64,000 nucleotides of DNA from Planctomycetaceae bacterium (GTDB taxonomy: Bacteria > Planctomycetota > Phycisphaerae > Phycisphaerales > UBA1924), in contig JAJTDF010000007.1 of NCBI GenBank assembly GCA_021294835.1, positions 6,341-70,340 of the forward strand, given 5' to 3'. The first letter of the stretch is position 1. Every line of letters starts with the position of its first letter. The notes under the pieces were generated by a model. It saw only the letters and a list, made by a program, of their open reading frames with translations, did not search any database and was not told the origin of the DNA. Shown here piece after piece: positions 7,779-61,339 of the stretch. The translations under genes and the position numbers were made by a program.

Positions 7779-7832
7779 GGTGGACTTTCGGTGAGATGGG
7801 CGTGTGGTGAGGGCCGGGGGATGGGCAGTCGC

Positions 7833-9696: not shown

Positions 9697-11956
<2,260 letters not shown>

Positions 11957-11960
<4 letters not shown>

Positions 11961-14119: not shown

Positions 14120-14541
14120 CGTCGTTCTCCTTCGCATTCCCCGTGGGTATAGGGCCGGGGCAGGTGCTCCCACATGCGGGTCACCCGGCGGCACGGCCTG
14201 TGGGAGCCGGGGGCCCGCGGGTGGGGCGGTGGGTGGCGTGCTGGGCGGGCCAGCCGAACCCGATCAATGGTACCTCATCTTGGCCAATTGGCGACTTCAT
14301 GGTCATCAATTCACTAATCAGTGGGGCGTGAACCGGTGTCAAATCACCCTGAATGGGTGTATTCATCTGGGGTGCCTGGCCGGCGGATGGCAAAACAGCG
14401 GGCTTTGGGGGCCACACGGGACGGGCGAGGGCCTGGGGGGAGTGTGGCGGCGAACTGGTGGGCTAGCCTCGCGCGGTGTGGCTGACAACTGGCGGGCAGG
14501 GCACCCGGGCGTGGCTGGGGATCGGAGGTGTGGGCCGAGCA
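14120..14541. promoter_or_regulatory. Divergent intergenic region (mutA operon leftward, dinB rightward)
   Basis: A 422-nt gap between divergently transcribed genes. It contains the most AT-rich stretch of this neighbourhood (about 14265-14370). I recognised no defined operator or riboswitch motif. Confidence 0.3.
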
Positions 14542-20721: not shown

Positions 20722-21291
20722 GAAGACTCCAGAATCGAACGAAAGTGAAAGCGTGCTTGTTGGCGCGGATGGTGAGCGTGGTTTGGTCCACGCTGCCGGA
20801 CGGGAAGGGAACGCTATCGGTTCAGCGGCAGCGCCTGCCGTCGTGAAGCGCACCTCGTGCCCGAAAGCCAGATTCGCACCAGGAGGGACATCGGGTGCGA
20901 TGTTCGTAGAAAGGTTGGCATTTGTTCCGTGCCTGATGGTTGACCGGCCGGGAGAATAGGTAATCTGTCCACGCACACATCTTGCCTTGTCCTGCGTTTC
21001 GTGCCAAGTCTCGCCAAGCAAAAGCCGGCCCTGACAGTGGAAAGGTGCAGGGCTCGAAACGCGCAGGGTGGCCGGGATTGCCCGAAACCGGGAGGGGCGT
21101 GGAGACGCAGATGTAAACCCCCTCTTTGGGTTGTCCTGGCCAGCAGGGGTCGGGGATCGGCCCGGTCGAGATGGGCACGGCGGCGGCGGCTTCCCAGCGG
21201 CATCCCTGACTCGGGGTGAAGTTCAGGTCCGAACGCGGCCGGCGGTGTTTTTCGGACCATCGTTCGGCGGAGAGGCGGTAGACTGATCGAC

Positions 21292-22549: not shown

Positions 22550-25500
22550 ATGACCAAGAGCGTGATGTCGGTCGCGGCGCTGGTGTGCTGCTGCGGAACC
22601 CTGGCGGCGGTGACGGACGCGAGCGGGCCGGTGATGCTGGACGGCAAGCCGCTCTCGGAGCGTGACGCAGCCTTGGCCTTCCGGCCGGTGCCGCCGACGG
22701 CGGAGGAGATCGCCGAGCGGTTCACACTTCCGGGGTATGCCGAGAAGAAGGACGGCGCGCTGGTGCTGGCGAGCATCAACTGGAACGTGCCGTTCTCCGG
22801 CGACGCGGGGGCTCCGAACTTCTACATGTATCGGGGGCGCGGCGTGCCGCTGGCCCTGCGGCGTGACGTGGTGGCTGTTGCGATGCCGGCCGGGGTTCAG
22901 GTGGCCGATATGGTCAGGCTGCTGATCGCGGCGGGCGTGCCGGCGGTGAAGGCGGATGATCTGGGCAACGGCTACGCGCTGGTGACGCTGGCGCAGGCGG
23001 CCAAGGACAACACCGAGATGCGTGCGTTGATCGACCGCATGACCGTGGTTCCGGGCATCGCGTACGCGGCCCCGGTGTTTGACGGGCCGGTCAAGGCCCG
23101 GCTGTTTGTGTTCCCCACGCCGGACGTTCTGGCGCGGATGGCCGAGCGTGATCAGGGTGCTGCCGAGCGGCTGGCGCTGGCGGTCTCGGGCGCCCCGGCG
23201 GGCGCGACGGCCGAGGCCTTCTCGGCTGCTGAAGGCCGCGTGCGGGTTCGCACCGGCCTGAGGAACGGCTACGACGTGCTGGTGGCGGCGAACAAGGCGG
23301 CCAGTGATGGGCGATCAATGTGGGCCGAGCCGGACATGGTGACCGAGGGGTTGAGTGACATCACGCCCAACGACCCGTCGTTCAACACGCAGTGGTGGCT
23401 GTTCAACTCAACCACCTCGGGCGTTGACCTGGACGTGCGGGCGGCCTGGGAGGTGACCTTCGGACGCAGCAACCTGCGGGCGATGGTGTTCGATACCGGC
23501 GCCCAGGAGAATCACCCGGACATCAACTCCGCCCAAGGGCGGGATTTCACCAGCGGCACGGCGACCGGGACGGCGGGTGGCGGGCCTGTGTTCGCCTGCG
23601 AGCGGCACGGCACACCGTGTGCCGGCATCATCGCCGGTCGAACGGACAACGGGGTGAGCATGGCCGGCGTCGCCGGCGGCTCGTTCGTACTCGGCGCACG
23701 CTTCGCGACGCAGAACCAGGTCACCTGCTCCAACAGCTTCTCGGCCAACTACTCGCATCTGGCCAACGGCATCAACTGGACGCGCACCAACAGCATCCGC
23801 GTCACCAGCCACTCGTACTCGCTCGGCGGCACCTCCGCTGCGGTCGAGGATGCCTTCGAGAATGCGTACAACGACGGCATCATCCACTTTGCCTCCACAG
23901 GCAACGACTCGGACACCTCGATCAACTATCCGTCGTCGGTCGCGTTCGTGAACGCCGTGGGTGCCATGCAGAGCGACGGCACGCGGGCGGGCTTCTCCAA
24001 CACCGGCACGGGCATCCAGTTCGCCGCCCCCGGCGTGAACGTTCAGACCCTCGACCGCAGCGGCGCCGACGGCTACACCAGCGGCGACACCACCAGCTTC
24101 AGCGGCACCTCGGCCGCCTGCCCGGCCGCGGCCGGCACGGCTTTGCTGATCTTGGGCATCTTCCCGGATCTGTCGCCCGCATCGCTGGAGTTCCTGATGA
24201 GGACCGGCGCACGGGATCTCGGGGCCTCGGGCTACGACACATCGTTCGGCTGGGGCCTGCCCAGGGCGTACTCCACCATCAACCTGTTCGCCCCCGCGAA
24301 CGACAAGTGCAGCGCCGCGAAGGTGATCTCGACGAACGCCTACACCGACAACATGAACACGGCCCGCGCCTTCACCAACACCTACTACGAGCCGCGCCCG
24401 TCGTGCGTCAGTTCATCCTCCAACAGCGTGTTCTACAGCTTCAGTCCGCCGAGCTATGGCACCATGTCGGCAAACACGACCGGGTCCAGTTATGACACCG
24501 TGCTGAGCGTCTTCACCGGGTGTGGAACGAAGCTGTTCCTCTTCGGCCAGCCGAACGCCATCTACCTCACGCCGACCATGCTGGCCTGCAATGACGACTC
24601 CGGCGGCACGCTGCAGTCGTCGATCACCGGCCTGGGGCTGAGCCCTCGATCCTCGATCATCATCGAGGCGAGCAAGTTCGGCACCATCTCGTCGGGCGGC
24701 ACCCTGAACCTGAGCTTCAACTTCACGCCGACCTCGCCGCCCAACGACGCCTGGCCGAACGCGATCGCGATTCCGGCTGGCGGCGGGTCGGTCACCGGGG
24801 CGACAATCCTCGCGACACCCGACGGCGGCACCGGCAACTGCGGCAGCTCGGACAACACCGGCGACGTGTGGTACTCATATGTTCCATCGTGCACGGGAAC
24901 GCTTGGCCTGCGGACCCAGAACCACACCTATGACACCGTGCTTGCGGTGTTCTCAAGCGGCGCCAACAACAACCCGCAGACGCGGCTGGCGTGCAACGAC
25001 GACTGCAACCCGCCCCAGCGCGACAGTTGCGTGTCGCTCGACGTGACCGCCGGCACGCGGTACCTCATCCGGGTCAGCGGCTTCAACGGAGCGACCGGCG
25101 TGTTTGACCTGGTGCTCACCCCGCCCGGGGCCCCGTCCAACGACCTGTGCGAGAACGCGACCGCGGTGGTCGACGCCGGTGTGTACCTGTTCTCCAACGG
25201 TTGTGCCACCGCCAGCGCCGGTCTGGGCCTCACCGGGTGCGGGGCCGCGGCGGACGCAGGCCGCGACGTGTGGTACACCTTCACCGCCCCTGGCGACGGT
25301 GACCTCACCGTCAACACCTTCGGGTCCAACTTTGACACCGTGCTGGTCGCCTATGACGGCTGCCCGATCGCCGGGCAGGCGGCGATTGCGTGCAGCGACG
25401 ACGCGCAGGGCGTTCAGAGCCGCATCACCATCCCTGTTGTTTCCGGTCAGCAGTATCTGCTGCGTGCCGGGGGCTATGTGGGCTCCGGCGGCGGCGCCGG

Positions 25501-25768
25501 GGCTGCCGGGGACGGCGTGCTGAACGTCGACTTCGTGCCCGCCCTGCCCCCTGCGTGCTCGCTGGCCGACATCGTCAGCATCGGCGGCTCGCCGCCGCCG
25601 GACGGGCTGCTGACTGGCGACGACTTCAACGCCTTCATCGGCGCCTTCGCCCAGAACGATCTGCTCGCCGACATCGTGTCGATCGGCGGCACGCCCCCCG
25701 GCGACGGCCTGATCACCGGCGATGACTTCAACGCCTTCATCGCTGCCTTCGCCGCTGGTTGCCCGTAA
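22550..25768 (+). CDS. Secreted subtilisin-like serine protease (peptidase S8) with three Cys-containing C-terminal domains and a twin dockerin-like tail
   Basis: ATG at 22550 preceded by GGAGGA. Signal-like N-terminus MTKSVMSVAALVCCCGTLAAV. Catalytic triad contexts VFDTG (Asp), HGTPCAGIIAG (His) and SGTSAACPAAAG (Ser). Three domains of about 130 aa (24295-25535). Tail at 25551-25768. Confidence 0.88.
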   Translation: MTKSVMSVAALVCCCGTLAAVTDASGPVMLDGKPLSERDAALAFRPVPPTAEEIAERFTLPGYAEKKDGALVLASINWNVPFSGDAGAPNFYMYRGRGVPLALRRDVVAVAMPAGVQVADMVRLLIAAGVPAVKADDLGNGYALVTLAQAAKDNTEMRALIDRMTVVPGIAYAAPVFDGPVKARLFVFPTPDVLARMAERDQGAAERLALAVSGAPAGATAEAFSAAEGRVRVRTGLRNGYDVLVAANKAASDGRSMWAEPDMVTEGLSDITPNDPSFNTQWWLFNSTTSGVDLDVRAAWEVTFGRSNLRAMVFDTGAQENHPDINSAQGRDFTSGTATGTAGGGPVFACERHGTPCAGIIAGRTDNGVSMAGVAGGSFVLGARFATQNQVTCSNSFSANYSHLANGINWTRTNSIRVTSHSYSLGGTSAAVEDAFENAYNDGIIHFASTGNDSDTSINYPSSVAFVNAVGAMQSDGTRAGFSNTGTGIQFAAPGVNVQTLDRSGADGYTSGDTTSFSGTSAACPAAAGTALLILGIFPDLSPASLEFLMRTGARDLGASGYDTSFGWGLPRAYSTINLFAPANDKCSAAKVISTNAYTDNMNTARAFTNTYYEPRPSCVSSSSNSVFYSFSPPSYGTMSANTTGSSYDTVLSVFTGCGTKLFLFGQPNAIYLTPTMLACNDDSGGTLQSSITGLGLSPRSSIIIEASKFGTISSGGTLNLSFNFTPTSPPNDAWPNAIAIPAGGGSVTGATILATPDGGTGNCGSSDNTGDVWYSYVPSCTGTLGLRTQNHTYDTVLAVFSSGANNNPQTRLACNDDCNPPQRDSCVSLDVTAGTRYLIRVSGFNGATGVFDLVLTPPGAPSNDLCENATAVVDAGVYLFSNGCATASAGLGLTGCGAAADAGRDVWYTFTAPGDGDLTVNTFGSNFDTVLVAYDGCPIAGQAAIACSDDAQGVQSRITIPVVSGQQYLLRAGGYVGSGGGAGAAGDGVLNVDFVPALPPACSLADIVSIGGSPPPDGLLTGDDFNAFIGAFAQNDLLADIVSIGGTPPGDGLITGDDFNAFIAAFAAGCP
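25551..25768 (+). other. Twin dockerin-like C-terminal module (2 x ADIVSIGG.PP.DGL.TGDDFNAFI.AFA) ending in AAGCP-stop
   Basis: Two direct copies of about 30 aa within the S8 protease C-terminus. The same module occurs at 61122-61331. The DNA core GGCGA(C/T)GA(C/T)TTCAACGCCTTC is shared by all four copies. Confidence 0.8.
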
Positions 25769-25861
25769 CCGGCCGGATCGACGAGGAGACATCCCTCCGA
25801 CGCCACGCCGCCTGAGGGTGTGCCGTCGGCATGCGAAGTCCGCGGCCGGTTGAGCGAGAGT

Positions 25862-28177
25862 TCACCGGCCGCTTTGCTTGCCCTGGGGGCGATCCTGCGA
25901 GGCCGTCGGGTCGGCCAGCGCGGGTGTGGGGGCGCCGCCCGAGACCGACGCGGCCGCGGGCGCCACGGGCAGGAGGCGCAGGGCCGGATCGGCCCCGTGC
26001 AGTTCCGGGTGCAGGTAGCGGCCCCGGTTGGGGCCCTTGTCCTGCTCCACCGGGGCGCCGGCGACGCGCACGAAGGCGTCGTTCCGCACCGCTTCAATCC
26101 GCCAGGAGACCCGCTGGCCTGGCTGGCCGCCGGCGATCACGAACTGGTTGTCCTGCACCTCCTGGGCGATGTGCAGCAGCGGGGCGGGTGCGCCGATGGC
26201 CGTCAGCGTGTAGCGCGGATCGCGGTTGATGGCCTCGAACCACTCCGGCAGGCTGACCACCGCGTTGCCGGCCGCATCGAGCGTGACGTTGCCGGAGTAC
26301 ACGTTCATGGGCTCGGGCCCCTCGGCGCAGTAGTGGTTGAGCACCTTGTTGGCTGGGTCCAGTGGGTGATCGATCTGGAAGGCCTTTGTGCCGGTCGCGG
26401 TCAGCCGGCCCGATGCGTACACACCATGCCCGGTGATGATGGCGTTGGTGGCCCCCAGCACGCCGATGGGCTGCCCGGTGAACGCGGTGGCAAAGCCGAA
26501 CACCGCCGTGCCCTGGTTGCCGGCGGCCTGGATGTTCAGCGTGGTGCCGGCGGGGTCGGTGGTGGCGGCGTCCATCACGGTGACGATGTCCCGCGCTGTG
26601 ATGCGGGCGAGGCTGAGCGTGGTGTTCAGCAGCAACCGGCCGTCGGAGGTGATGCGGGCCCGCTCCGCCCCGTTGGTTGCGAAGATCATGGCGTTCTCGC
26701 TGGTGCGGTAGCCCACCTGCCCGAGCAGCGCGCCGGTGCGTGAGAGGAAGCTCACGGCCCCCAGAAACGTGCTGGTGGCGGCGTTGTTGCGGAGTTCAAG
26801 GATGGCGCCGGTGGCGTTGCTCTCGGTGGTGAAGCGGGCGATGGCCAGCGGCACCCGCATCTCCAGCGGCTGCGACGGCGTGCTGGTGCCGATGCCCACC
26901 GGACCGGCCAGAAACGCCCCCGCGTCCACCGTCAGCGTGCTGTCCATCTCCACCGCGCCGGTGAACCGGCCCCGCCCCTGGAACCAGCCCGCGAAGCCCA
27001 CGTCGCTGCGGCCGTACACGCCGATGGCCGACGTGCCGCTGCCCGACAGCCCCACCACGCCCTTGCCTCCGGCGACGGTGCCCTCGCCCCGCACGCCCAC
27101 GCCGCCGGTGCCCAGCAGGCCCGACGGCGCATCAAACAAAATGTCCGCCGAGCCGGTCTCGCCGATCACGCCGTAGCCGTTGGCCAGCCCGGCGCCATAC
27201 ACGCCCGCGGCGTTGATGTTCAGCCCGTCGGCCAGGCCGGTGAGGCCGGTGAACACGCCCACGCCCAGCACGCCGGTGCCGCTGGGGCTGGTGGAACTGC
27301 CGCGCACGCCGGCGTTGGCGCCGGTGCCGGTGTTGGTCACGTCCACCAGCGCTGCGTCCTGGCCGTCCAGCGCCAGGCTGGCGATCAGCGGCAAGGCCGC
27401 TTCCGGATAGCCCCAGCCGATGTTTTCGCCATCGAAGACCAGCCCGGCCCCGGCGAGGGCGCCGGTGGGGTCCAGGCTGAAGGTGTTGTTCTGCAGCAGC
27501 AGGCCGGTGCCGGCGAAGTACGCCGAGCCGGGCGGGCCAGCGGGACCGACCGGGCCCTGCAGCCCCTGCGGCCCCTGCGGGCCAATCGGGCCTTGCGGGC
27601 CGGTGGCGCCAGTGGGCCCAGCGGGGCCGGGTGCTCCGGCAGGGCCAGCAGGGCCAGCAGGGCCAGTGGGGCCGCTTGGGCCCGTCGGGCCGGCGGGGCC
27701 AGTCGGTCCGGTTGGCCCAGCCGGTCCCGCCGGGCCCGGCGTGCCGCTGAGCGCGAACAACGCCAGCGGCGCCGGGGTGATGGGCTGGCGGGGCAGCAGA
27801 TCGGTGAACTCGCCCGCCCCAGCCGGGCGAACGGCGACGGCCAGCCAGCGAGGCCCGCCCGAAAGCGCCTCAAGGCCAAAGTCCACACTCACCGCGAACC
27901 GCCCGGAGTCGATGCTCACGCCGCTGCGCTCCAGCGGACCGGCCACCGGCGTGCCGCCGCTGGCGTCGGCGAACAGCCACAAGCGAACGTCCACCGTGCC
28001 GCTGATGGGCACACCCGCCTGGCTGAGCGTGCCCTGATACGTCCACGCGGTGGGCGAGATGGGCTGGGCCAGCGACAGGCCGCTTGGCCAGGATGCAACG
28101 GCCGCGGCCAGCAGGGCGACGGCTAGGCGGCGAGAGTGGGGGAGGCGGCAAGCCGGGCGAAAGCGGGTGGGCGGCAT
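25862..28177 (-). CDS. Secreted collagen-like triple-helix-repeat protein with tail-fibre-like C-terminal domain
   Basis: ATG at 28177. Signal-like [23 protein letters not shown]. About 24 uninterrupted G-X-Y triplets. The C-terminal block [58 protein letters not shown] resembles the conserved C-terminal domain of bacterial tail-fibre-domain proteins. Confidence 0.8.
27527..27745 (-). repeat. Collagen-like G-X-Y repeat tract (about 24 triplets)
   Basis: Translation [73 protein letters not shown]. Gly sits at every third residue without interruption. Confidence 0.9.
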
Positions 28178-28344
28178 GCACCAAGGGTGCCCGACAGGCC
28201 GGGCGGAGCAAGGGCCGCGGCGGGAATCTGGCTTGCCGGAGGCGTCGGCGGGGCCGCGGTGGCTCAGCAGCCATTCCATCCGGCGGGTCTGAGGGCCGGT
28301 AACATCTGCCTGACGGGGGGACGCAGAAGGGACGGTGCGGGCGG

Positions 28345-30339
28345 ATGGGCGAGCACGATCATGGCACCAAGCGGGGATCGCAGCGGGGCGGTGCGCTGAT
28401 GCCGCAGCCGTATGCCCGCGAACACCGCTGGCGGCTGTGGCTTGCCGGCATTGCCATGGTGCTGGCGACCGTGCCGTGGGCGGCGTTCCTGGCGTGGGTG
28501 ATTTGGAGCATCTTGGAGGTGCAGCCGCCTCCGACGGTCCAAGCCGGTTGGCTGTTGCCGGCACAACTGGTAAGCAGTGCGGTGATCGTGGCGCTGGCAG
28601 GGTGGACCACCCTGCGGCTGTGGCGGGGGCTCATGGGCGCCGTGCGGCGGTCGATCAACTGGTGGGGCTGTCCGCGGTGTGGCTTCTCGCTGCGAGGACT
28701 GCGGGCGGAGCTGGCTGCAGACGGTGGCTGGCGGGTCACCTGCCCGGAGTGCGGCAGGTGGGGCACGGTGGCGGCGGTGGCCGTGTTGGGCGATGGGACG
28801 GTGGCGACGGAGGCGGATCGGGAGGTCAGTGCAGCGGCGGACATTGCGCTGAAAGCGGTTCGGCAAAGGGGCTGCCTTGGCGAGCTGGTGCGATTGGCGA
28901 TGAAGAGCTGTGGTCTGGTGTTCTTGGCTGTGGCGACCACCGCTCTGCTGGTCGGGGTTGATCTTTGGCGAACCCGGTCCAACGTCGTTGGTTCACTGCA
29001 GGATATTGAGCAGATGCACCAGTGGCGCAAGCCCATCTCGCCGTACGTGGAGAGGGCGTTGCGGCGAATGCACCGGATGGCCACTTCGAGCGATGTGACG
29101 TGGGCCATGAAGGCGGGCTTGCTGACTGATCGCCACCCGATCAATGTGGCGATTGAGGCGTGGCAGGTGTACGGCTTCTACCCCACATTCCTTGACGCCG
29201 CGATCTCCGCATCCAGCGTGCGGCACAGTGTCAGAGACGATCTCCGAGGAGGGAGTTGCCGAGAGGCGATCGTCGAGGTCCAGCGTTGGATCACCGAGGC
29301 CAAGGCCGTGCATCCCGGCAAGCCTCCCGACCCAAGGACTGGGTACGAGCTCTTCTCGGGGCTGGCCGCCGGCGTTCGGATGGCGGTGCTCGAGGCGCTC
29401 GCCCGTGCTGAGGAGGGCGACTGGCCAGGGGCGGCCGAGATGCTCATCGCGGCCGACCTTGTCGGTCGCGCCGTATCGGCTGCGGCACCAACCACGGAGA
29501 TGCTTCGAGCCAGCGAATCTCGCGACGTGATTCTCGCGACAGTGGCTCGGCTGGTCCGCGAGTGGCCGCCCGAGAGTTTCCTTGGGCCGATCATCGAGTC
29601 GGGCATGTTGTCCGACGATTGGCTGAGCGTCGCCGATGCCCGGCTTGCACTCCGTGGACTTGTGGCAGTGGGGGCCGAGCCGGGCTATCGATTCATGCAG
29701 AAGCGTCCGCTCTGGCCGTTGGACGAGTTGGTCGGCGATCGATGGCGATTGCCGCGATTGAAGTGGGTCGTGGAGAGGCGTCTCTTTTTCACATCCGGGC
29801 GCCTGGCCTCGTTTCTGCCCGATGAAGCAAAGACGGCCGAGTTGGTTGAGCGTGTGACCAGGGGTGATCAGTTCGCTTTCAGCGAGGCGAGGACATGGTG
29901 GGTGGGCGTCGGAGATGTAGTCGTTTGGCTTGACGTGTTCTGCATTCAACTTGCCGCCGGCCACACGCTGCTTGATTGCCGCGCCCGTGCCATCCTTCTG
30001 GCCATCGCCTGCCAGCGGCACATCCTCCAGACCGGCCAGACGCCCGGTACGCTGGATGACCTGCGTGCCTCCGGCCTGCTCCCCGACGGTTTGCACCCGC
30101 TGGTGCGCCCGGGCCGCGACATCCGGCTTGCGGTACGTCGCCTGCCCGGTCGCCCGCCCCTGGTGGTCGTCTCCAGCGGTAACCATCTGCAGGTGGCGAC
30201 GAGGTACGCCGATGAGGGCGGCGTCTGGTTCCCCTACGAGGGTTCCGATCTGGAGTTGCCCGTGGTGAAGCACCCCGGCGGTGTCGCCGCGGCCGAGGCC
30301 GAGCGGCCGAAGTTCCTCGGCACGCGGGCCCCGCCGTGA
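28345..30339 (+). CDS. Hypothetical membrane protein, zinc-ribbon paralog 1 of 4 (664 aa)
   Basis: Two hydrophobic helices, then CPRC-20 aa-CPEC (28669-28752), a third helix, and a large helical domain. That domain carries the blocks [21 protein letters not shown] and [12 protein letters not shown] shared with the next three genes. The start could also be the ATG at 28399. Confidence 0.7.
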
Positions 30340-30565
30340 GAATCGCCGCTTTCGCAGCGCTGCACGCAACCGGCGGCGGGTTATCGGCGAATCGACGCTG
30401 CCGGGGCATGCCCCTTTGGCCCCTGGTGCCGGGCGGCGGTCGGCCTGTGTGGGAGTGTGTCATGGGTGCGCATGCTGACGACCGCGAGCGTGTGGGCGAG
30501 CGTCTCTCCCGCGTGGGTGCCCCGCTGAGCGGCGGGCGCAGCGAAGCCCGCCGGAGCGCACAGCC

Positions 30566-32557
30566 ATGATGCCCCGTCCGCTGGCCACACTGCGACGGGC
30601 TTGGAATGGCCCGGCGGACCTGCCGACGGTCGCCGCCGCCGATGACCAACTGCTGCGAGGCAAGCCCGGGCCGTGGGTGTGGGCCGGTCGGGGGGCGTGT
30701 GTGCTGCTGGCTGTCGTGCTGGTGGGGCTCCCGTTGCCCCTGCTGCTGAGTCTGGTGGCGACGCGATGGGCGATCGTTGATCCGGCCTGGTGGCTGGCGG
30801 TCCGCGCGGTGTTCCCGCTGGCGGTGCTCGGCGTTGCCACGCTGGTGGCGTACCGTCTCGGCCACTTCATCATGGTGCATGCGTGGTGGAGCCAGGCGGG
30901 CGGCACGTGCAACCGCTGCGGGCATGGGCTTGAAGGCCTGCCGGTCGAGCAGGTCGGAGGCGATCCGACCGTCAGGTGTCCCGAGTGCGGCACGCTGATG
31001 ACCGTGAAGGCCGAGGACGTCGATCCGGCCTCGCCGCGGATCGCGGGCGATCACGGGCACAACCGCTTGGTGATCACCCTCGCCCAGCAGCGGCGGCTCG
31101 CCGCCATGTGGCCGGCCGCAAGGCGTCGGCTGCTTCGGCGGACCGTGCTGAGCGGCTCGGCGGTCGTTGTGTTGGTCCTGGCGCTGCCCATCGCCGTGTT
31201 CGGCGTGAGGCTCGGGTTCGCTGCCATCGATGCTCGGCAGGCGCGTGCCGATCTGGCGAGGTTCAACGCCACGCTTCGCCCGCTCGATGCAAGCGTGTCG
31301 GGCGTGGTGGCCCAGTTGCAACGGGCACGGGCCGAGGCGAGGGCCGGCGGTGCCGACCTGTACGCTGATGTGTGGCAGATGATGCCGGAGCGGCTTGGGC
31401 TGTGGCTGCCGGGCGGGGTGATCGCACGGTCGCCCACGACAGTCGACTGGGGCCGTCCGCTCCGCGTTCTGCTGGCCCGCCCCCTGCTGGCAGAGGCACT
31501 GGCCGCCCTTGAGCATGGCGCGCCCCCAGCCCCCGAGCGGCAACCGCCACCGCTGCAAAGCCTGCGAGAACTGGCGGCGAACCACTTCCTCGCGGATGAT
31601 CCTGCAGCCCTCTGGCTTGAGCACGGGATCTCGCTGGGGCTGGTGGAGGCATTGATCAGGGCCGAAGCCGGCCGGTGGCGCGAGGCGGCGGAGATGCTCG
31701 TGGCGACCGATCGATTCGGCCGCGCTTTTGCCCTCAGCCTGCCCATGTGGATGGTGTCGCAGAACCTGCGGCTGAATGACGCGGTGGTGGAACTTGTTGC
31801 TCGGCTGCTGCTCGAGCGACCGCCGGCGGAGTTCATCGACGCCATCGATGCTTCGGGCCTGCTGACCACGCCCTGGGTCGACCGCGATCTGCACAACGCG
31901 GCCGATGCCGCGGCCAGGCTGTTCCACGAGGCGTGGCTGTTCTCCGATCCGCTGAACCACGCTCTGATGCCCTGGTATGACCCGGGCGAATTCGCAGACA
32001 AGCGGCCCGAGACGGTGCCGGAGTTCATCGCGGCGTGTCTCAGTCTGCCGCGCGGGCGATATGCCCAACGTGTTGAGCCGTACCGGTCACTGGCAGAGAG
32101 GCTCCTGCGGGCGGAGGCAGTGGGGCGCCCGCAGCCGTTCGACCATCACGTGCTGGTGACATCCAGCAATCCTGCACAGGCCGGCATCAGTGACCGGTGG
32201 ACTGGGTTGGCACGATCAGCACTCGGCACTCAACTGGCGTTGGCGGCGCTCCGCTGCGAGCGGTGGATGGGAGGGCCGCCGGCAAATGCGGCCGAGTTGG
32301 CGGCCACCGGGTGCTGGCAGGCAGCGCCGGCCAGCGCTGCCCTCTGGCAGTCGGTCACCATCACGGTTCGAAAGGTGGTCGGCGGCGGGCGGAGCGTGCG
32401 ATGGCACGAGATCGTCACCGCCCCGCTGCACGAGCCGGACGGCATGAGCGACGAGCATCTGGTGTTCCCACATAGCAGGATGAGTTGGGAACTGGCCGCG
32501 CTGCTGCGCGACCCGCAGTGGCACGTGTGGTGGCCGGTGTTCAGATCCGCCCCCTGA
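30566..32557 (+). CDS. Hypothetical membrane protein, zinc-ribbon paralog 2 of 4 (663 aa)
   Basis: Same architecture: two helices, CNRC-19 aa-CPEC (30908-30988), third helix, then the blocks AEAGRWREAAEMLVATDRFGRA and LERPPAEFIDAI. Confidence 0.72.
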   Translation: MMPRPLATLRRAWNGPADLPTVAAADDQLLRGKPGPWVWAGRGACVLLAVVLVGLPLPLLLSLVATRWAIVDPAWWLAVRAVFPLAVLGVATLVAYRLGHFIMVHAWWSQAGGTCNRCGHGLEGLPVEQVGGDPTVRCPECGTLMTVKAEDVDPASPRIAGDHGHNRLVITLAQQRRLAAMWPAARRRLLRRTVLSGSAVVVLVLALPIAVFGVRLGFAAIDARQARADLARFNATLRPLDASVSGVVAQLQRARAEARAGGADLYADVWQMMPERLGLWLPGGVIARSPTTVDWGRPLRVLLARPLLAEALAALEHGAPPAPERQPPPLQSLRELAANHFLADDPAALWLEHGISLGLVEALIRAEAGRWREAAEMLVATDRFGRAFALSLPMWMVSQNLRLNDAVVELVARLLLERPPAEFIDAIDASGLLTTPWVDRDLHNAADAAARLFHEAWLFSDPLNHALMPWYDPGEFADKRPETVPEFIAACLSLPRGRYAQRVEPYRSLAERLLRAEAVGRPQPFDHHVLVTSSNPAQAGISDRWTGLARSALGTQLALAALRCERWMGGPPANAAELAATGCWQAAPASAALWQSVTITVRKVVGGGRSVRWHEIVTAPLHEPDGMSDEHLVFPHSRMSWELAALLRDPQWHVWWPVFRSAP

Positions 32558-32594
32558 AACCGGAGCGAGAGCGTTCCGTTCGGAGGAATCACCT

Positions 32595-34547
32595 ATGCGA
32601 TGGCTCGTCCGCCGCCTGTATCGCGCCTTCCCCGAGCTTGACCCGTTCAGCGACCAGGAGTGCCGCGCCTTTGTGCATCGGGCCCGGTGGTCCAAGCGGC
32701 ACGTGCTCGTGCACCCGGCGTTGTTGCTCGGGACGTGGACGGTGCTCGCGGCCTCGTACTGGGGGCTGGTGCTCTGGCTGCTCGATGCGCCGGTGACCAA
32801 GGATGGGCAATGGTGGTGGTGGGTCTGGCGGCTGGTGGTGGGGGTGCTGGCGGCTGCGGCGGTGTTGCTGGCGGGCCTCCGGGTCCGGCATGTGCTGCTC
32901 CGGCGGGCGGTGGCGGCCCTGCTTGCAGCCCGCGGGGCGTGCGATGGTTGCGGGCATGGCATGGTCGGTGTGCTGGTGGGCGAGCAGGGGGCGGTGTGCC
33001 CGGAGTGCGCGCTGGTCAAGCGGCTGGCGGAAGGGGAAGCCGTGATGGCCGAAGACGGGCGCGAGCGTTTCCTGCCCCGGCCGGAGGGTGCGGCGCTGGC
33101 GATCCCATGGACGGCGCGATTGAGGCCGGTGATGCGGAAGGTGGGGCTTGCCGCCACCGGTGTGGTTGTCATTGCAGCGGTGTACCTCGCGGTCAACGAA
33201 GTGCGCATCCAGATCGATACGCGCGGTTACGCGGAGATGCTGGCACGCGAAGCGGCACCCCGTGGTGTTCTTGACGCACGCCTCGCTCGGGCGATGGAGA
33301 GTCTCGGTCAAATCGTTCAAGGGCGAGAGGCCGCGTTTGTGCAGACGCTGGAGTTCAGGCTTCTGGAACATCCAGACCTCGCTCTCGCGCCATGGGGCCT
33401 TCGGTCGGACTGGTTGACTGTCGCTCCCGAGGAGTTCGCAGCCAATGCGGTGCGGGCCGTGGCGATCGGCCAGTTGCAAGAGGCCTCTGTGCGAAGGGTC
33501 CTCGAGGCGCTGATCTCAGAGACTCAGCCGGATAGCTCCGGAACTGCCGGCGCTGTGCCTGCAACCAGCCAGTTGACCAGCATGATCCACGGGGTGACTT
33601 GCTGGATGGTCCGGCAGGCATTGGTCAGCGCCGAAGTGGGTCGCTGGGCTGACGCAGCGAAGTGGTTGATTCGGGCCGATGAGATCGGTCGGCGGGTCGG
33701 CTCCGTGTCGGGGGCGTGGGTGATCGATCAATGTCTGTACTCTCAGTCTCTGCTCATGCAGGGCGTGTGTCGGTTGATGATGGAACGGCCCCCAGATGAG
33801 TTCATCAAGCCCATGCTGCGATCGGCAGTATTCTCGGGGCTTTGGGTGAGCGATCAACAGGTGTGGGAGGTGGTCCGAAATCGGCTCTTTGCAAGAGCGT
33901 TCTCGCGTTTTCGGGATGCCGAGGACATCAGATGGCTTCCTTGGCACGACCCACGTGGCATCTACGGGGGCTCTGGTCGCCCGTCATCGATGCTGAGTCG
34001 GCTGCAGCAGCCACTGGGGCGCTTGCAGGAGCATGTTGATGCGGCCGACAAACTGACCGCCGCCATGCGAGCCTGGGCGCCGACCCGTTGGATGACCTTC
34101 TCTACGCCGACATTTCCGCCTACAGGCGTGTGGGCGATCGATGCGGCGGTGGTGAAGGTCCCGCGAGCAGTCGATGATGTCTTGGACCAGCCGGTCCACC
34201 TTGCGGCATTGCATGTTGCCGTGGCTGCCGAAGGCTTTGCCCTGCGGACCGGCTCAGACCCATCCAGTCTTGCCGACTTGCTGGGCTCGCCCGAGTTGCC
34301 AGTTCTGCCGGCGGCGCTTGCCGGCACAGGGAGTGGCGTTGGCTTGGCGATGCACACGTTCGCCGATGGTCATGCTCGGCCGATCGTCTACCTGTTCGGC
34401 CCGGATGGCCAGGACAACGCGGGCGGCAGGGGCGACATTCTCCTGCACCCCTTGCCCAAACTCATCGGACCTTCCGGAGCCCCTTGGCACACAGTCGACC
34501 CTGACCGCCCTGTCTTCATCGGCAGCCGACTCCCCCAGCCGCCGTGA
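32595..34547 (+). CDS. Hypothetical membrane protein, zinc-ribbon paralog 3 of 4 (650 aa)
   Basis: ATG preceded by GGAGGA. N-terminal box RAFPELDPFSDQECR. Two helices, CDGC-15 aa-CPEC (32940-33008), RFLPRPEG, third helix, then the blocks AEVGRWADAAKWLIRADEIGRR and MERPPDEFIKPM. The C-terminal FGPDGQDNAGGRGDI motif is pseudopilin-like. Confidence 0.78.
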   Translation: MRWLVRRLYRAFPELDPFSDQECRAFVHRARWSKRHVLVHPALLLGTWTVLAASYWGLVLWLLDAPVTKDGQWWWWVWRLVVGVLAAAAVLLAGLRVRHVLLRRAVAALLAARGACDGCGHGMVGVLVGEQGAVCPECALVKRLAEGEAVMAEDGRERFLPRPEGAALAIPWTARLRPVMRKVGLAATGVVVIAAVYLAVNEVRIQIDTRGYAEMLAREAAPRGVLDARLARAMESLGQIVQGREAAFVQTLEFRLLEHPDLALAPWGLRSDWLTVAPEEFAANAVRAVAIGQLQEASVRRVLEALISETQPDSSGTAGAVPATSQLTSMIHGVTCWMVRQALVSAEVGRWADAAKWLIRADEIGRRVGSVSGAWVIDQCLYSQSLLMQGVCRLMMERPPDEFIKPMLRSAVFSGLWVSDQQVWEVVRNRLFARAFSRFRDAEDIRWLPWHDPRGIYGGSGRPSSMLSRLQQPLGRLQEHVDAADKLTAAMRAWAPTRWMTFSTPTFPPTGVWAIDAAVVKVPRAVDDVLDQPVHLAALHVAVAAEGFALRTGSDPSSLADLLGSPELPVLPAALAGTGSGVGLAMHTFADGHARPIVYLFGPDGQDNAGGRGDILLHPLPKLIGPSGAPWHTVDPDRPVFIGSRLPQPP

Positions 34548-34707
34548 TCACCCCCGCTGCACGATGAGCGTCGGCCTCCGGTCTGGATGCCGCACTCCGT
34601 ACTATGGGCCACGCGGCGGGCCATCGACCGACCGCATGGCTGGCGGGCGATGGGCGGGATTCGTGGGCAGATGCAAAGTTGAGCGGGCGGGTGGCAGGAG
34701 GTGGTCG

Positions 34708-36705
34708 ATGCGTGTGATCGTGCGGCAACTCTGGCGGGCGTTCCCTGAACTCGATCCATTCAGCGACCAGCAGTGCCGCCTGTTCCTGCGGAGCGCCCGC
34801 CGCACGCGCCGGCACATGCTGCGGGGCAACGGCTTACTGGCTTCCGCCTTTCTCCTCAGTCTGCTCATGGTCGGCGGGCTGACCTTCGCGCTCTTCTATC
34901 ACATGCGCGATGGTGAGGTGTCGTGGTGGCCTCAGACCTGGCGGGTGCTGGTCAGCGGCGGCGGGTTCGCCGTCGCCGCTTTCGGGTTGCTTCGCTTGCG
35001 CGACCGCACGCTTCGCCGCTCTGTGCTGCACCTGTTCGCCACCCGTGGTTCGTGCGAGGCCTGCGGCCATGCCATGAGCGGTCTGCCGATCCCGGAGGAT
35101 GGGCTGCGCTGCCCGGAGTGCGGGCACCGCAAGGCCCTGCTGGAGGTTGAACGGACGCTGGATGAATCAGGACGGGTGCGGTTCCTGCCCAGGCCCGAGG
35201 GGTTGGAGGTCCATGATCCCTGGCAGTTGGGGACGAAACTCCGCCGGCTGGCCAAGCGTGCCGCACTGGTTGTGATCGCCTGCGTCGTGCTTCTTGGGGC
35301 AGCGGTTGGTGTGGCTTTGCTGGTGAATGAAGCGGCCAATCAGGCTGATGCGAGGCTGGCGGTGGCGGATCTGGCGGCGCTGTCGGCACCAGAAGTGCCG
35401 CCTGAGCCGGAGGTGCTGCAACTGCTCAACGGGCTCGCAAGACTTGAGGACAGGTTCGGTCCGGGGGCCGAGGCCCGCAGCCCGGACCAGACTCTGGACG
35501 ATATCGCTCGCAGCCCGGATCTGGTTCTCAGTGCGTTCGGAGTCGGTACCGATGTGTCGTCGACCGTCCGACATCCTCCGGCCGACGTGCGTGAGATCGC
35601 CCGCGCTGCCCTGATCGGTCACCCGTCTTGGCGGCTGCTCGCCGACGTCGTGCTGGGGCGAACCGCTCCGCCGATTCACGCGACAGACGGTGAGAACCCA
35701 GCCTTTGGCTGGCGGGGGCCTCCCGCGGCGTCGGTGCTGTACCGGAGCCACTTGGCCGCCCTGTCGCTGTGCGTCCTGAATGCCGAGCGAGGCGAGTGGC
35801 TGCAGGCCGCGGAGTTGCTGGCCGGCGCCGATGCGCTGTGCCGCAGGTTGGGGGCCGGCCGCTCGGTGCGCGACCTGTTCTTGTCTCAGCGCATGCAGGC
35901 TGCGCAGTTGCGTGTACTTCACCGCTTGCTGGTCGAGCGACCGCCATCGGCATTCCTTGACCGCATCGCCTCGTCATCACTGCTTGATGCCGTCTGGGTG
36001 GATGACGAGGCCTTGACGGACAGCCTGAGCAGGTGGGTGCTTGGGTCCGCCGTCGCTCCGAACTACCAGCACCCCGAGGCTCTGCGCTGGTTGCCCTTTG
36101 CGGATCCCGAGCAGATCACCGCCGCGCCGTCCAGATCTCTTGAAGGTCTCCTGGCGAGGATGACGGTGGCCCGACTCGGACGGTACGAAGACCATCGGCA
36201 GGCCCTGCGGCGGAAGGTTGAGGGCATACAGGCCGCCCTGGCCGGACCGGCCGACCCGATCATTCCGGTGGTCCTTCCCGCCAGCGGCTCCCATCTTGTC
36301 GACTCGTTCACACCCATGCTCTCCCTCGCGGTCACTGAGGTGGTGCGACTGAAGCACGATCTGGCCCTCGCCCGCGTAACGCTCGCCGGTGAGCGATTCA
36401 CCGTTCGGGAGGGTCGCCGCCCGCGGGATCTTCAGGAACTGCTCGACTCGGGCTTGTGCCCACACGGTCTGGGCGCGCTGGCCGAGGTCACGCCGGCCAT
36501 CCGCCTCACTTCTCTGCCGACGGCCGATGGACGGCTGGTGACGGTGATCTACACCGCCGGTCCAAATGGTCAGGACGAGGGGGGTGCCGGTGACGACGCG
36601 ATGTTCTTCCCCACACACATGCTCCTGCAGGCCGGCGGTGTGACCATGCAAGGCGGCAAACCTGGGCCGGCCGATGTGGTCTTCAAAGGCGCTCGGCCCG
36701 AGTGA
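34708..36705 (+). CDS. Hypothetical membrane protein, zinc-ribbon paralog 4 of 4 (665 aa)
   Basis: ATG at 34708 preceded by AGGAGG; the longer ORF from 34174 overlaps paralog 3 and was rejected. N-terminal box RAFPELDPFSDQQCR. CEAC-15 aa-CPEC (35053-35121), RFLPRPEG, then the blocks AERGEWLQAAELLAGADALCRR and VERPPSAFLDRI. C-terminal AGPNGQDEGGAGDDA. Confidence 0.78.
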   Translation: MRVIVRQLWRAFPELDPFSDQQCRLFLRSARRTRRHMLRGNGLLASAFLLSLLMVGGLTFALFYHMRDGEVSWWPQTWRVLVSGGGFAVAAFGLLRLRDRTLRRSVLHLFATRGSCEACGHAMSGLPIPEDGLRCPECGHRKALLEVERTLDESGRVRFLPRPEGLEVHDPWQLGTKLRRLAKRAALVVIACVVLLGAAVGVALLVNEAANQADARLAVADLAALSAPEVPPEPEVLQLLNGLARLEDRFGPGAEARSPDQTLDDIARSPDLVLSAFGVGTDVSSTVRHPPADVREIARAALIGHPSWRLLADVVLGRTAPPIHATDGENPAFGWRGPPAASVLYRSHLAALSLCVLNAERGEWLQAAELLAGADALCRRLGAGRSVRDLFLSQRMQAAQLRVLHRLLVERPPSAFLDRIASSSLLDAVWVDDEALTDSLSRWVLGSAVAPNYQHPEALRWLPFADPEQITAAPSRSLEGLLARMTVARLGRYEDHRQALRRKVEGIQAALAGPADPIIPVVLPASGSHLVDSFTPMLSLAVTEVVRLKHDLALARVTLAGERFTVREGRRPRDLQELLDSGLCPHGLGALAEVTPAIRLTSLPTADGRLVTVIYTAGPNGQDEGGAGDDAMFFPTHMLLQAGGVTMQGGKPGPADVVFKGARPE

Positions 36706-36863
36706 ATCGCAGCGTGGACTGCCGGGATGGGATGCTTATCAATTGCCCGGGCACACGTTTCCAGAGGGCAGACGGTGGGGGTTGGGGGGGGCGGTCGGTC
36801 CCCGGTCGCCAGAGTTCACATTGGGCGGCCATGCTCGGACGCCGGTGCAAGGAACAATTGTGG

Positions 36864-38216
36864 ATGCAGACTTTCGTGAACAGGGCGGCTGGCTGTTGGC
36901 CGAAGGGCGGCACGCGGGCGGTGCGTGGAGCGGCATGGCGGCCCGGCCGCACCACCGTGATCGTTCTGCTTCTGGCGGTGTTGCTGCTGCTGGGCGGGGT
37001 GGTCACCTTCGTTGTGCTCCGCTATGGGTACTTCGGCCCGAATGTTCCGCGACGGAGTGACTGGCCGGAGGCGAGACGGGAGCATCTGCTCAAGGTGGTG
37101 GCGCGGCTGGGCGGTCGGCAGACGCTCGGCGAGGCCAGCGGTTGGGATTATCTACAGGCTGCGGTGACGGCCCATTTGGCCGCACACGGTGCCGCCGGGG
37201 TGGACGTTTCCAGAAGTGGGATGGTTTTCGACGGCCCGTTGGCACACTCCGAGGAGCAGATCGCGGCGTACATCTTGGGCTTTCGGGAGGCCGGGGGGAT
37301 GGCGAGTCTTGACCTGCTGGCTTCGGGTGGGCCCGGGGTCCAGCCGCTTTCAGGGTTTCTGGTGGATCCGTTTCGTCAGGCGGAATCGCCAACCCGTCGA
37401 CCGATCTTGTCGAGTGTGCGGGATCTTGCCCGGGCACTGGCCTACGACATCCGACGTGCGGGGACCAGCGGATCAGAGGTGGTGGCACATGCCCGCCGCT
37501 TGGCGGCTTTGTCCGCCTCGGCTGTGCAGGATGGCAATCTCCTCGATGGTCTCATGAGCATCGCTGTCGCAGATGCTCTGGACCGGGCCGTGATCGATCG
37601 CGCGCTGAGCGCCGCCCGATTGCAACCTTCCGAGTTGGCCGAGATCAGAAAGGTGCTCTCGCAGGCCGGGCACATGAGCTTGGGCGAAGCCCTTGAGGGG
37701 GAGCGGTTGGCCATTCGTCAACTGATCGACGACGTAGTGAGCGACAGTCCGCTGAAATCAAAGTCGCGTTCGGCGCAGATCTCGGCGGTCGAGGCCTTCT
37801 TCGCATGGGCGCAAAGCGTCATTGATCGTCCGCCCGCAGAGCGGCGGATGCTGGCCGCGGGCGGCTTTGTTTCTGGAGCGGAGCCTCGTTCGGTCGCCGC
37901 CATGGTGATCCCATCGACTCACAAGATGTTTCAGTCGAGCGAGCGGGTGGCCAGTTCACGTGCGGCAACCATCCTTGCTTTGGCGGCCCTGGAGTTCCAA
38001 GCTCGGCACGGCCGTTTGCCGCAAGCCCTTGCCGAACTTGTGCCTGAGTTTCTCCAAGCCATTCCGCTGGATCCGGTCAATGACGAGCCATTCGTGTATG
38101 CATTGGCAGATGCGCCGGCTGGGTTCACCATCGTGAGCCTTGGTGAAGATGGCAAGCCAAACGTCCGGCCCGGTGACGGAGACGATCTCGTGCTGGTCCC
38201 GCCCCGCAAGGACTGA
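36864..38216 (+). CDS. Hypothetical single-pass membrane protein related to the C-terminal part of the four paralogs; GspG-like C-terminus
   Basis: One hydrophobic helix (TTVIVLLLAVLLLLGGVVTFVVL). DRPPAE block. C-terminus LAALEFQARHGRLPQALAELVPEFLQAIPLDPVNDEPFVY...SLGEDGKPNVRPGDGDDL. Start uncertain: ATG 36864 has AAGGA upstream. Alternatives are ATG 36831, or GTG 36702, which overlaps the paralog-4 stop as GTGA. Confidence 0.62.
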   Translation: MQTFVNRAAGCWPKGGTRAVRGAAWRPGRTTVIVLLLAVLLLLGGVVTFVVLRYGYFGPNVPRRSDWPEARREHLLKVVARLGGRQTLGEASGWDYLQAAVTAHLAAHGAAGVDVSRSGMVFDGPLAHSEEQIAAYILGFREAGGMASLDLLASGGPGVQPLSGFLVDPFRQAESPTRRPILSSVRDLARALAYDIRRAGTSGSEVVAHARRLAALSASAVQDGNLLDGLMSIAVADALDRAVIDRALSAARLQPSELAEIRKVLSQAGHMSLGEALEGERLAIRQLIDDVVSDSPLKSKSRSAQISAVEAFFAWAQSVIDRPPAERRMLAAGGFVSGAEPRSVAAMVIPSTHKMFQSSERVASSRAATILALAALEFQARHGRLPQALAELVPEFLQAIPLDPVNDEPFVYALADAPAGFTIVSLGEDGKPNVRPGDGDDLVLVPPRKD

Positions 38217-38396
38217 GCCGCGTTCGGAACCCGTGGCCGCGGCCCGTCTCTGCCCCCTCGCCAGCGTTCTCCCCACCAACCGACAGCCCTGTTCGTCCGC
38301 CGCCTCACACGCTGGTCACACCCCTCACCCGGCTGCGACCCCGACCGACCACCCCCCGCCCGGACCCTCCCCGCGACTCACGATCTACACTGCCCC

Positions 38397-61331: not shown

Positions 61332-61339
61332 ACTGCCGC

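Follow-up and report, generated by a model that had tools for sequence, protein, structure and literature searches.

A polymorphic tandem array of zinc-ribbon membrane proteins from an undescribed family of Phycisphaerales planctomycetes

Introduction

The Phycisphaerales are abundant, mostly uncultured planctomycetes whose envelope is poorly understood. What, then, should be made of a locus in this order where four consecutive genes encode large membrane proteins of one shared layout, followed by a shorter fifth gene, and none of them can be assigned to a named family? The five genes, here called P1 to P5, lie in tandem on a stretch of 64,000 nucleotides (nt) from a Planctomycetaceae bacterium (contig JAJTDF010000007.1, positions 6,341 to 70,340; the whole stretch is referred to below as the window). 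A first-pass annotation, made from the sequence alone, had proposed them as an undescribed envelope system. Here, we describe the family to which the array belongs, its variation between close strains and the function that its architecture would allow. The most interesting concrete result is a cassette-like polymorphism of the array whose junctions could be mapped.

Results and Discussion

The array belongs to an undescribed protein family

All five genes were found as intact open reading frames (ORFs) on one strand, with the positions (Table 1) and spacing annotated at first pass; the spacers P1-P2, P2-P3, P3-P4 and P4-P5 measure 226, 37, 160 and 158 nt. The P4 and P5 starts are ATGs internal to longer mechanical ORFs and agree both with the N-termini of homologues and with independent gene calls on related contigs. 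The called frames are consistent with GC content by codon position, and the ratio of nonsynonymous to synonymous substitution rates (dN/dS) of 0.16-0.38 supports the view that the array genes are real coding genes. The exact P2 protein is present on 22 metagenome contigs, and the whole array of the window recurs at 100% identity on five contigs from five different samples.

P1 to P4 are homologous, as had been proposed (BLASTP E 2e-67 to 6e-9, with pairwise values computed at a database size of 1e8). P3 and P4 were correctly singled out as the closest pair (31% identity, E 2e-67); E-values for the other matching pairs were 1e-16 (P2/P3), 1e-11 (P2/P4), 2e-9 (P1/P3) and 6e-9 (P1/P2), and identities among the paralogs range over 20-31%. 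BLASTP found no match between P5 and P1-P4, and their relationship emerged from a profile hidden Markov model (HMM) of the family, which matched P1 at E 1e-54, P2 at 8e-73, P3 at 3e-102, P4 at 5e-115 and P5 at 1e-24. Judged by this profile, P5 is a true family relative, with the single helix and the missing ribbon described at first pass. The relationship rests on grounds other than the DRPPAE block cited for it, which does not occupy a homologous position: it aligns to HMM column 711, as opposed to column 593 for the ERPP block of P1-P4. In a neighbor-joining tree, P1-P4 form one clade inside the family, on long branches, together with the replacement paralog of contig L001 and the paralog P0003, both described below. 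Sequence comparison thus gives good support to the array as a monophyletic, lineage-specific tandem expansion of four long forms and one short form.

The first-pass annotation had treated the array on its own, and a word-indexed homologue search that returned just six relatives suggested that the array proteins were orphans. This was overturned by an exhaustive HMM search of 1.84 billion representatives, in which 376 family clusters passed a cut-off of E<1e-30, nearly all of them full length (640-700 amino acids [aa]). A scan of one genome per species added 171 confirmed loci, and the 80 of these that were listed with taxonomy are almost all labelled Phycisphaerales, Phycisphaerae or Planctomycetota. 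By their profile matches the array proteins are therefore a divergent offshoot of a larger family, which appears to be confined to Phycisphaerales and related Planctomycetota. Where sources name its members at all they are labelled hypothetical. The claim that the proteins belong to no named family withstood every search: Pfam, NCBIfam, PADLOC, PHROGs and a sequence search of the PDB returned no family covering the whole array proteins, Foldseek found no structural match, and the literature search on the family and its motif returned nothing relevant. Pfam and NCBIfam gave sub-threshold zinc-ribbon matches and a weak T2SSG/GspG match at the C-terminus of P5. The family is thus undescribed in these resources and in the searchable literature.

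Two further candidate identities were rejected. Residues 21-107 of P4 score 24.7 bits against holin superfamily III (PF07332; cut-off 28.4), because the hairpin of the first two transmembrane (TM) helices of a 665-aa protein is all that is matched. The defence models of PADLOC-DB 2.0 gave no match except a trivial one, through a zinc ribbon, to Cas12f (E 0.047).

Gene content and alleles change as cassettes between close strains

Array gene content varies among contigs with flanks that are 94-98% identical. The flanks of contig L001 are 97-98% identical to window positions 23040-28354 and 32582-38374, and between them P1 and P2 are replaced by a cassette with a single 669-aa paralog, 32% identical to P2 and 26% to P1. 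Contig L003 carries the extra paralog P0003 (40% identical to P4) between its P3-like and P4-like genes. On contig L088, P3 is absent; the P1 allele has 52% aa identity over most of its length and 93-97% at the C-terminal end, and identities to the window are 96% for P2, 88% for P4 and 58% for P5, next to 94% nucleotide identity in purL.

The mapped junctions involve the 5' ends of the genes. P3 and P4 share 78% of bases there, although the complete proteins are no more than 31% identical. On L088, two alignments to the window overlap by 75 nt at the P4 5' repeat and P3 is missing, with the deletion junction inside the first ~72 nt of coding sequence common to P3 and P4. The P3 gene of L001 begins with 72 nt that are 90% identical to the window P4 5' end and then continues as P3 sequence, a switch from P4 type to P3 type that indicates gene conversion. 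The contigs thus show duplication, deletion and gene conversion between conserved paralog 5' ends, and they show whole cassettes and periplasmic segments swapped for divergent alleles. As a result, the set of periplasmic heads joined to the conserved cytoplasmic module differs from one close strain to another.

Divergence within single genes is mosaic as well. Along L088, synonymous divergence (dS) is 0.05 in P2, 0.22 in P4, 1.04 in P5 and 0.13 in purL. Within P4, compared with the L088 allele, residues 1-200 keep 90-100% aa identity (dN 0.021, dS 0.167, omega [dN/dS] 0.12) and residues 361-665 keep 78-97%, mostly 93-97% (dN 0.035, dS 0.156, omega 0.23), while residues 201-360 fall to 55-72% (dN 0.214, dS 0.419, omega 0.51). 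This hypervariable part overlaps the region that is least conserved across the family, and the mosaic pattern fits the import of divergent segments by recombination.

Polymorphic pilin loci, such as the pilA allele groups of Pseudomonas aeruginosa, show the same combination of highly divergent alleles or cassettes between flanking genes that are conserved in close strains. Unlike them, the array encodes proteins that are not filament-forming pilins, and its copy number also varies through recombination between tandem paralogs. The parallel raises the question of whether the array is a diversifying exclusion or immunity locus, at which variable heads would block phages or other envelope-exploiting agents, or mediate self/non-self recognition, and so drive cassette turnover. 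Such a role would account for the sharp differences in gene content and alleles between contigs with nearly identical flanks, for the gap in dS between P5 and the adjacent purL, for the hypervariable periplasmic patch and for a third-position GC content below that of the neighbors (see below), and pilin genes are classic polymorphic loci. We nevertheless consider it distinctly unlikely, given that neither PADLOC nor PHROGs holds a match, that the viral contigs scanned contain no family members, that omega is below 1 everywhere it was tested, and that most genomes have one syntenic family gene, set among housekeeping genes (41 of the 75 genome loci whose context was compared).

The genes are constrained but evolve faster than their neighbors

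Against dN/dS values of 0.11 in purL, 0.13 in the collagen-like gene and 0.045 in the protease that flank the array, the range in the array genes is higher (P3, 0.22 relative to L001; P4, 0.16-0.32), so that they are constrained yet faster-evolving than their neighbors. GC content at third codon positions (GC3) is 0.71-0.82 in the five array genes versus 0.87-0.92 in all neighboring genes, which indicates atypical codon usage through low expression, relaxed selection or recombinational import.

These values could also be expected if the extra copies were redundant or decaying duplicates whose variability reflects relaxed constraint only, a view to which the gain and loss of copies between strains and the missing family motifs of P1 and P2 (below) would lend themselves. 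It is very improbable, however, in the light of five intact ORFs, of an array preserved without a single difference in five samples, of dN/dS well below 1 even where dS is about 1 (P5), and of zinc-ribbon cysteines kept in all four long paralogs. The description of the array as an old, maintained expansion is accordingly borne out as regards its age, with 20-31% identity, a single clade and purifying selection; the word "maintained" understates the turnover of gene content.

A predicted cytoplasmic zinc ribbon and a large predicted periplasmic domain

Hydropathy, a motif scan and structure modeling agree with the layout first described for the long forms: a basic N-terminus, two hydrophobic helices, a CxxC-x15-20-CPEC segment, a third helix and a mostly helical domain of ~450 aa. 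P5 has one N-terminal anchor helix and a periplasmic domain with a GspG-like end, without the zinc ribbon. By direct count, Arg and Lys abound in the N-terminus and the TM2-TM3 loop of P4 but not in the TM1-TM2 loop or in the segment that follows TM3; an N-terminus inside the cell, a cytoplasmic ribbon and a periplasmic C-terminal domain are therefore predicted. The short forms point the same way for the shared ~450-aa domain, because they put it behind a lipobox, a signal peptide or an anchor. The long forms are thus predicted to be N-in, three-helix inner-membrane proteins, in line with the proposal that the array encodes envelope proteins; the zinc ribbon would face the cytoplasm and the large domain would lie outside it.

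Two cytoplasm-facing modules are well supported: an N-terminal peptide of ~30 residues (YRAFPELDxFSDxQC) and, between TM2 and TM3, a four-cysteine (C4) zinc ribbon with a basic juxtamembrane stretch. There is good support, too, for a compact periplasmic domain of ~450 residues after TM3, which is helical and ends in a subdomain that is likely homologous to the GspG head. In the whole window, the CxxC...CPEC motif occurs in P1-P4 only. The expected conservation of its four cysteines extends to 86 family members, in which C116, C119, C135, E137 and C138 are invariant, and the N-terminal motif MRxxxxxxYRAFPELDRFSDEQCxRFV is at least 90% conserved in the same set. P3 keeps the N-terminal motif in full (MRxxVRRLYRAFPELDPFSDQEC); P1 and P2 are without its RAFPELD core and have a degenerate version of the pilin-like motif at the C-terminus. 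By information content, the N-terminal peptide (3.2 bits) and the zinc ribbon with its basic juxtamembrane stretch (2.7-2.8) rank highest; the C-terminal ~100 residues are intermediate, and the minimum lies in periplasmic residues ~221-340. The blocks E.G.W..AAE and ERPP, reported at first pass as conserved, are so within the array clade; elsewhere in the family, the corresponding positions hold different residues.

Proteins of 180-343 aa encoded near canonical family genes match the family HMM weakly (E 2e-10 to 4e-7) and over the TM and zinc-ribbon region only (Table 1), so the ribbon module may also occur as a separate small membrane protein.

The C-terminal subdomain resembles the head of GspG

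One relationship had escaped the first-pass annotation. When a profile of the ~120 C-terminal residues of the family was compared with the PDB, the top eight matches were all GspG/EpsG-type pseudopilin chains (E 7e-5 to 6e-3), in alignments spanning the amphipathic helix, the DPWGxPxxY segment and the LYSxGxDG loop. T2SSG was the sole recurrent Pfam family, with matches at E<0.01 in 9 of 42 members that were always sub-threshold. P5 scored 13.5 bits against PF08334 (cut-off 21, E 0.077) and 13.7 bits against TIGR01710 (cut-off 88.85), and the canonical family member P0004 scored 17.4-18.8 bits against PF08334, again below the cut-off of 21. On this profile evidence, the C-terminal subdomain of ~100 aa is likely homologous to the globular head of GspG. 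Its nearest known relatives are GspG/EpsG/XcpT (PF08334 T2SSG; PDB 2kep, 3g20, 1t92, 3gn9, 3fu1), with which it has in common the amphipathic helix (LALERYRxxxGxYP), DPWGxPxxY and an xLYSxGxDGxDDGG loop; the S-x-G-x-DG-x-DDGG loop of the family head we take to be the counterpart of the calcium-binding loop of GspG.

The array proteins are nonetheless not pseudopilins, because a prepilin leader, an alpha1-N helix and a gsp context are all missing; homology to GspG is likely for the subdomain, and membership in its family does not follow. Unlike GspG, the N-termini of both long and short forms are without a G/FTLxE-type prepilin site and a hydrophobic alpha1-N helix, and the head is a C-terminal subdomain that comes after ~350 aa of helical domain on a three-TM protein or a lipoprotein. 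Neither the neighbors in the window nor the recurrent neighbors at the 75 loci indicate a gsp or type IV filament cluster, and the scores stay below the curated cut-offs.

A full-length AlphaFold2 model of P4 (predicted local distance difference test [pLDDT] 79, predicted template-modeling score [pTM] 0.71) contains a TM1/TM2 hairpin, a small beta zinc ribbon, a long TM3 helix, an all-helical domain and a small terminal beta sheet. The periplasmic domain of P0004 (residues 208-667) was modeled with higher scores (pLDDT 90.9, pTM 0.91). Foldseek found nothing significant for the full P4 model in the PDB (best E 0.28) and nothing for the P0004 periplasmic model in the PDB and BFVD (best E 0.1, template-modeling score below 0.2). 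The helical fold therefore matches nothing in the solved and viral structure libraries searched. Identities as an enzyme-like toroid, a TPR protein or a pore-forming toxin found no support in Foldseek, and the matches to PaxB/XaxB and chondroitin lyase are noise.

With a GspG head as the sole detectable homology of the periplasmic domain, down to the S-x-G-x-DG-x-DDGG loop, the proteins might be dedicated accessories of a type IV filament (type II secretion system [T2SS] or type IV pilus), in which the head would dock pseudopilins, pilins or the assembly platform and control filament assembly or localization; ZitP, a zinc-ribbon membrane protein required for pilus biogenesis, is a precedent. 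We judge this unlikely, since the head is neither directly preceded by a prepilin leader or hydrophobic alpha1-N helix nor exposed like a pilin, but packed in a larger helical domain (pTM 0.91), and since no gsp or pil gene occurs in the window or among the recurrent neighbors at the 75 loci.

A possible transmembrane adaptor or receptor

Two membrane proteins with a cytoplasmic C4 zinc ribbon have been characterized in other bacteria. The ribbon of Caulobacter ZitP recruits PopZ and its periplasmic part serves pilus biogenesis (PMC5182063, PMC5182065), and the ribbon of Myxococcus GltJ/AgmX acts in the MglA/MglB switch and its periplasmic part serves gliding adhesions (PMC11135422). The family resembles both in being a membrane protein with a cytoplasmic four-cysteine ribbon and a periplasmic part, but differs in that its ribbon lies between TM2 and TM3 of a three-TM protein with an extra N-terminal peptide, whereas ZitP and GltJ are single-pass proteins with the ribbon at the extreme N-terminus. 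A ribbon profile searched against the PDB matched the AgmX ribbon (7zok) at E 0.23 over its whole length and 2nb9 at E 4e-4 over half of it. P1 matched PF13717 weakly (E 0.065, 13.6 bits, cut-off 30.3), as did P2 TIGR02098 (E 0.68), and no family member scanned matched DUF3426 or GYF. We know of no PopZ or MglA link in Phycisphaerales. The parallel to ZitP and GltJ is an analogy of mechanism, not demonstrated homology or family membership.

From the architecture, we infer that the long forms could be transmembrane adaptors or receptors linking a periplasmic ligand to a cytoplasmic partner, a reading that we hold tentatively and put somewhat short of probable. The pilin-like or helical head would bind a ligand in the periplasm or envelope, perhaps a pilin-like or other component of the envelope, and the zinc ribbon and N-terminal peptide would dock a conserved cytoplasmic partner, as ZitP and GltJ couple envelope machines to cytoplasmic organizers. 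The short forms would be periplasmic partners or competitors of the long forms.

Several observations weigh against this proposal, beginning with its derivation from architecture. The ribbon resembles those of ZitP and GltJ weakly (7zok E 0.23; Pfam Zn_ribbon_4 E 0.065) and sits between TM helices instead of at the N-terminus. The GspG similarity is below the Pfam threshold, and Foldseek on whole models did not recover it. P1 and P2 no longer have the N-terminal motif or most of the pilin-like one, and they may be decaying or have another mode of action. A crude positive-selection test of the variable patch of P4 gave an omega of 0.51, not above 1, with raised dS, and so did not demonstrate diversifying selection. 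Finally, the recurrent neighbors of the 75 loci include no gene for a T2SS, a type IV pilus, a sigma factor, a kinase or a regulator; the conserved ones are metabolic or housekeeping genes.

The first-pass annotation had also speculated on an anti-sigma-like role. The long forms could be transmembrane anti-sigma-like or one-component signaling proteins, in which the periplasmic domain would sense and the zinc module sequester a transcription factor, and they resemble ZAS transmembrane anti-sigma factors in combining a zinc-binding module in the cytoplasm with a membrane anchor and a domain outside the cytoplasm; a highly conserved cytoplasmic part joined to a variable periplasmic part is, moreover, a pattern typical for sensors. 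The motifs differ, however: ZAS proteins carry HxxxCxxC in a helical anti-sigma domain, in place of the CxxC-x15-20-CPEC ribbon and three TM helices of the family. The array proteins and family members scanned gave no zf-HC2 or anti-sigma match in Pfam or NCBIfam, and the best anti-sigma structure in Foldseek was insignificant (8rot, E 1.3). As first reported, no sigma factor, kinase or ATPase gene adjoins the array in the window, and neither a regulator nor a cognate extracytoplasmic function (ECF) sigma factor gene occurs next to the array or among the recurrent neighbors at the other loci. We regard a signaling role of this kind as improbable, and the anti-sigma proposal found no support in context or motif. 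No rival draws enough support from its context to displace the generic adaptor or receptor reading, in which our own confidence is low.

Genomic context and neighboring features

Beyond the loci with one long form, tandems of at least two members occur at 29 of the 75 loci, at least two long forms at 14 and a short form at 19. Short forms recur beside long forms in other genomes, where the C-terminal domain is preceded by a Sec-type signal peptide, a lipobox or one anchor helix. No array among the loci examined is larger than that of the window, with its four long forms and one short form. Of the 41 members of the 3-hydroxyacyl-CoA dehydrogenase gene cluster, 26 lie directly upstream of the family gene and in the same orientation, and further recurrent neighbors encode methylmalonyl-CoA mutase, MgtC/DUF4010, RecX, a rhodanese, a small TPR protein, an ABC ATPase and an FAA hydrolase; an ATPase motor or a secretin is not among them. 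In many other Phycisphaerales, a single-copy family gene stands between 3-hydroxyacyl-CoA dehydrogenase and methylmalonyl-CoA mutase. The window has a propionate/methylmalonyl-CoA operon (carboxyltransferase, epimerase-like glyoxalase, MeaB and two mutase subunits), with no family member adjoining the mutase and the array 14 kb away.

In the window, the array is flanked by the collagen-like gene with an S8 protease gene on one side and by purL on the other, with nbaC, dinB and the methylmalonyl-CoA mutase operon farther upstream. The collagen-like protein, of Gly-Pro-X repeats, is encoded divergently from P1 with 176 nt between the starts; its mechanical ORF extends to 28564 and so overlaps P1, and related contigs call a gene of 768-771 aa. 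This flank is conserved where the array varies. The S8 protease ends in a tandem dockerin-like repeat (LADIVSIGG..PPDGLLTGDDFNAFI) that recurs with 75-83% nucleotide identity at the 3' end of a distant large gene, so that unrelated secreted proteins of the window share a C-terminal anchoring tail. A cyclophilin-type peptidyl-prolyl isomerase domain and bacterial Ig (Big_7) repeats occur together in one very large protein (1725 aa), which is presumably secreted and for which such a combination is unusual.

A promoter and terminator scan found no promoter-like sites and no terminator-like sites in the array spacers; its three terminator-like sites all lie within coding sequence and are fewer than expected by chance. 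No tRNA and no Rfam element was found in the window. An ORF of 35 aa is called in the P1-P2 spacer on three related contigs, with a 4-nt overlap into the start of P2; a leader peptide and an artefact are both conceivable. GC skew is +0.12 to +0.27 from 1 to about 23 kb, irrespective of gene strand, and -0.08 to -0.23 beyond about 44 kb, with a cumulative peak at about 38 kb, the 3' end of the array. A switch near 38000 would fit converging replication forks in a terminus region, and variable genes are known to concentrate in such regions. A search around the switch for a dif-like CATAA-N6-TTATG site found none.

Table 1. Location of the array genes, their parts and other features (window positions unless a contig is named)
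Feature	Location	Strand	Evidence
P1, long-form paralog, 664 aa	28345..30339	+	ORF; BLASTP to P2 and P3; family HMM; 3 TM helices
P2, long-form paralog, 663 aa	30566..32557	+	ORF; BLASTP; family HMM
P3, long-form paralog, 650 aa	32595..34547	+	ORF; BLASTP; family HMM; dN/dS
P4, long-form paralog, 665 aa	34708..36705	+	ORF; BLASTP; family HMM; full-length AlphaFold2 model; dN/dS
P5, short form, 450 aa	36864..38216	+	family HMM; 450-aa gene call on related contigs
Zinc-ribbon segment of P1 (CPRC...CPEC)	28669..28752	+	motif scan
Zinc-ribbon segment of P2 (CNRC...CPEC)	30908..30988	+	motif scan
Zinc-ribbon segment of P3 (CDGC...CPEC)	32940..33008	+	motif scan
Zinc-ribbon segment of P4 (CEAC...CPEC)	35053..35121	+	motif scan; small beta structure, model pLDDT 83-92
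GspG-pseudopilin-like subdomain of P4 (long helix and small beta sheet, AGPNGQDEGGAGDD loop), likely	36370..36627	+	profile against PDB; model strands 599-641
GspG-like subdomain of P5, likely	37980..38165	+	weak TIGR01710 and PF08334 matches, residues 373-434; in C-terminal family alignment
Hypervariable membrane-proximal part of the P4 periplasmic domain, codons 201-360	35308..35787	+	identity to L088 allele; omega
Replaceable cassette slot (P1 and P2)	28354..32582	+	blastn breakpoints; 4.2 kb replaced by 2.6 kb in contig L001
Conserved 5' end of P3 coding sequence, substrate for inter-paralog recombination	32595..32666	+	78% of bases common to P3 and P4 (direct count on alignment)
Conserved 5' end of P4 coding sequence, partner repeat, P3-deletion junction in L088	34708..34779	+	alignment overlap
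Small ribbon-region proteins	L004 549-1091; L005 3772-4314; L008 6437-6979; L008 1035-1793; L010 14332-15363	-	family HMM
35-aa spacer ORF	about 30462-30569; L088 1749-1856; L091 4770-4877; L093 4751-4858		gene callers
Propionate/methylmalonyl-CoA operon	6126-14194	-	
1725-aa cyclophilin/Big_7 protein	15844-21021	-	
Dockerin-like repeat of the S8 protease	25561-25753		
Second occurrence of this repeat	61127-61341		nucleotide identity
Large gene ending in the second occurrence	59166-61331		
Collagen-like protein	25862-28168	-	Pfam Collagen

Conclusions

Here, we place a five-gene array in an undescribed family of predicted inner-membrane proteins that occurs across the Phycisphaerales, usually at one conserved chromosomal position, without annotation or literature. 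Its novelty lies in a new arrangement of recognizable modules, a zinc ribbon and a pseudopilin head, together with a helical domain unmatched in the solved and viral structure libraries searched, and does not amount to a demonstrated new system. Of the "undescribed envelope system" first proposed, the undescribed family stands; as to the system, solely long and short paralogs of one family are linked. More speculatively, and unlikely to hold, the family might be the core of an unrecognized trans-envelope apparatus of Phycisphaerales, in which a pilin-derived head and a new helical fold would be wired to a zinc-ribbon switch. Tandem arrays would shuffle periplasmic specificities through recombination at 5' ends, a programmed-looking diversification that might serve envelope recognition (of phages, kin or substrates) or the envelope and division biology of this FtsZ-less lineage.

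The family profile, the models and the conserved residues provide a handle on a lineage-specific envelope function. The array itself is a natural experiment, in which close strains combine one cytoplasmic module with different periplasmic heads and the recombination junctions can be seen, and its pattern of variation is that expected for proteins whose partner, outside the cell or in the periplasm, varies. Should there be a cytoplasmic partner, the concept of the zinc-ribbon adaptor established for ZitP and GltJ would extend to another phylum.

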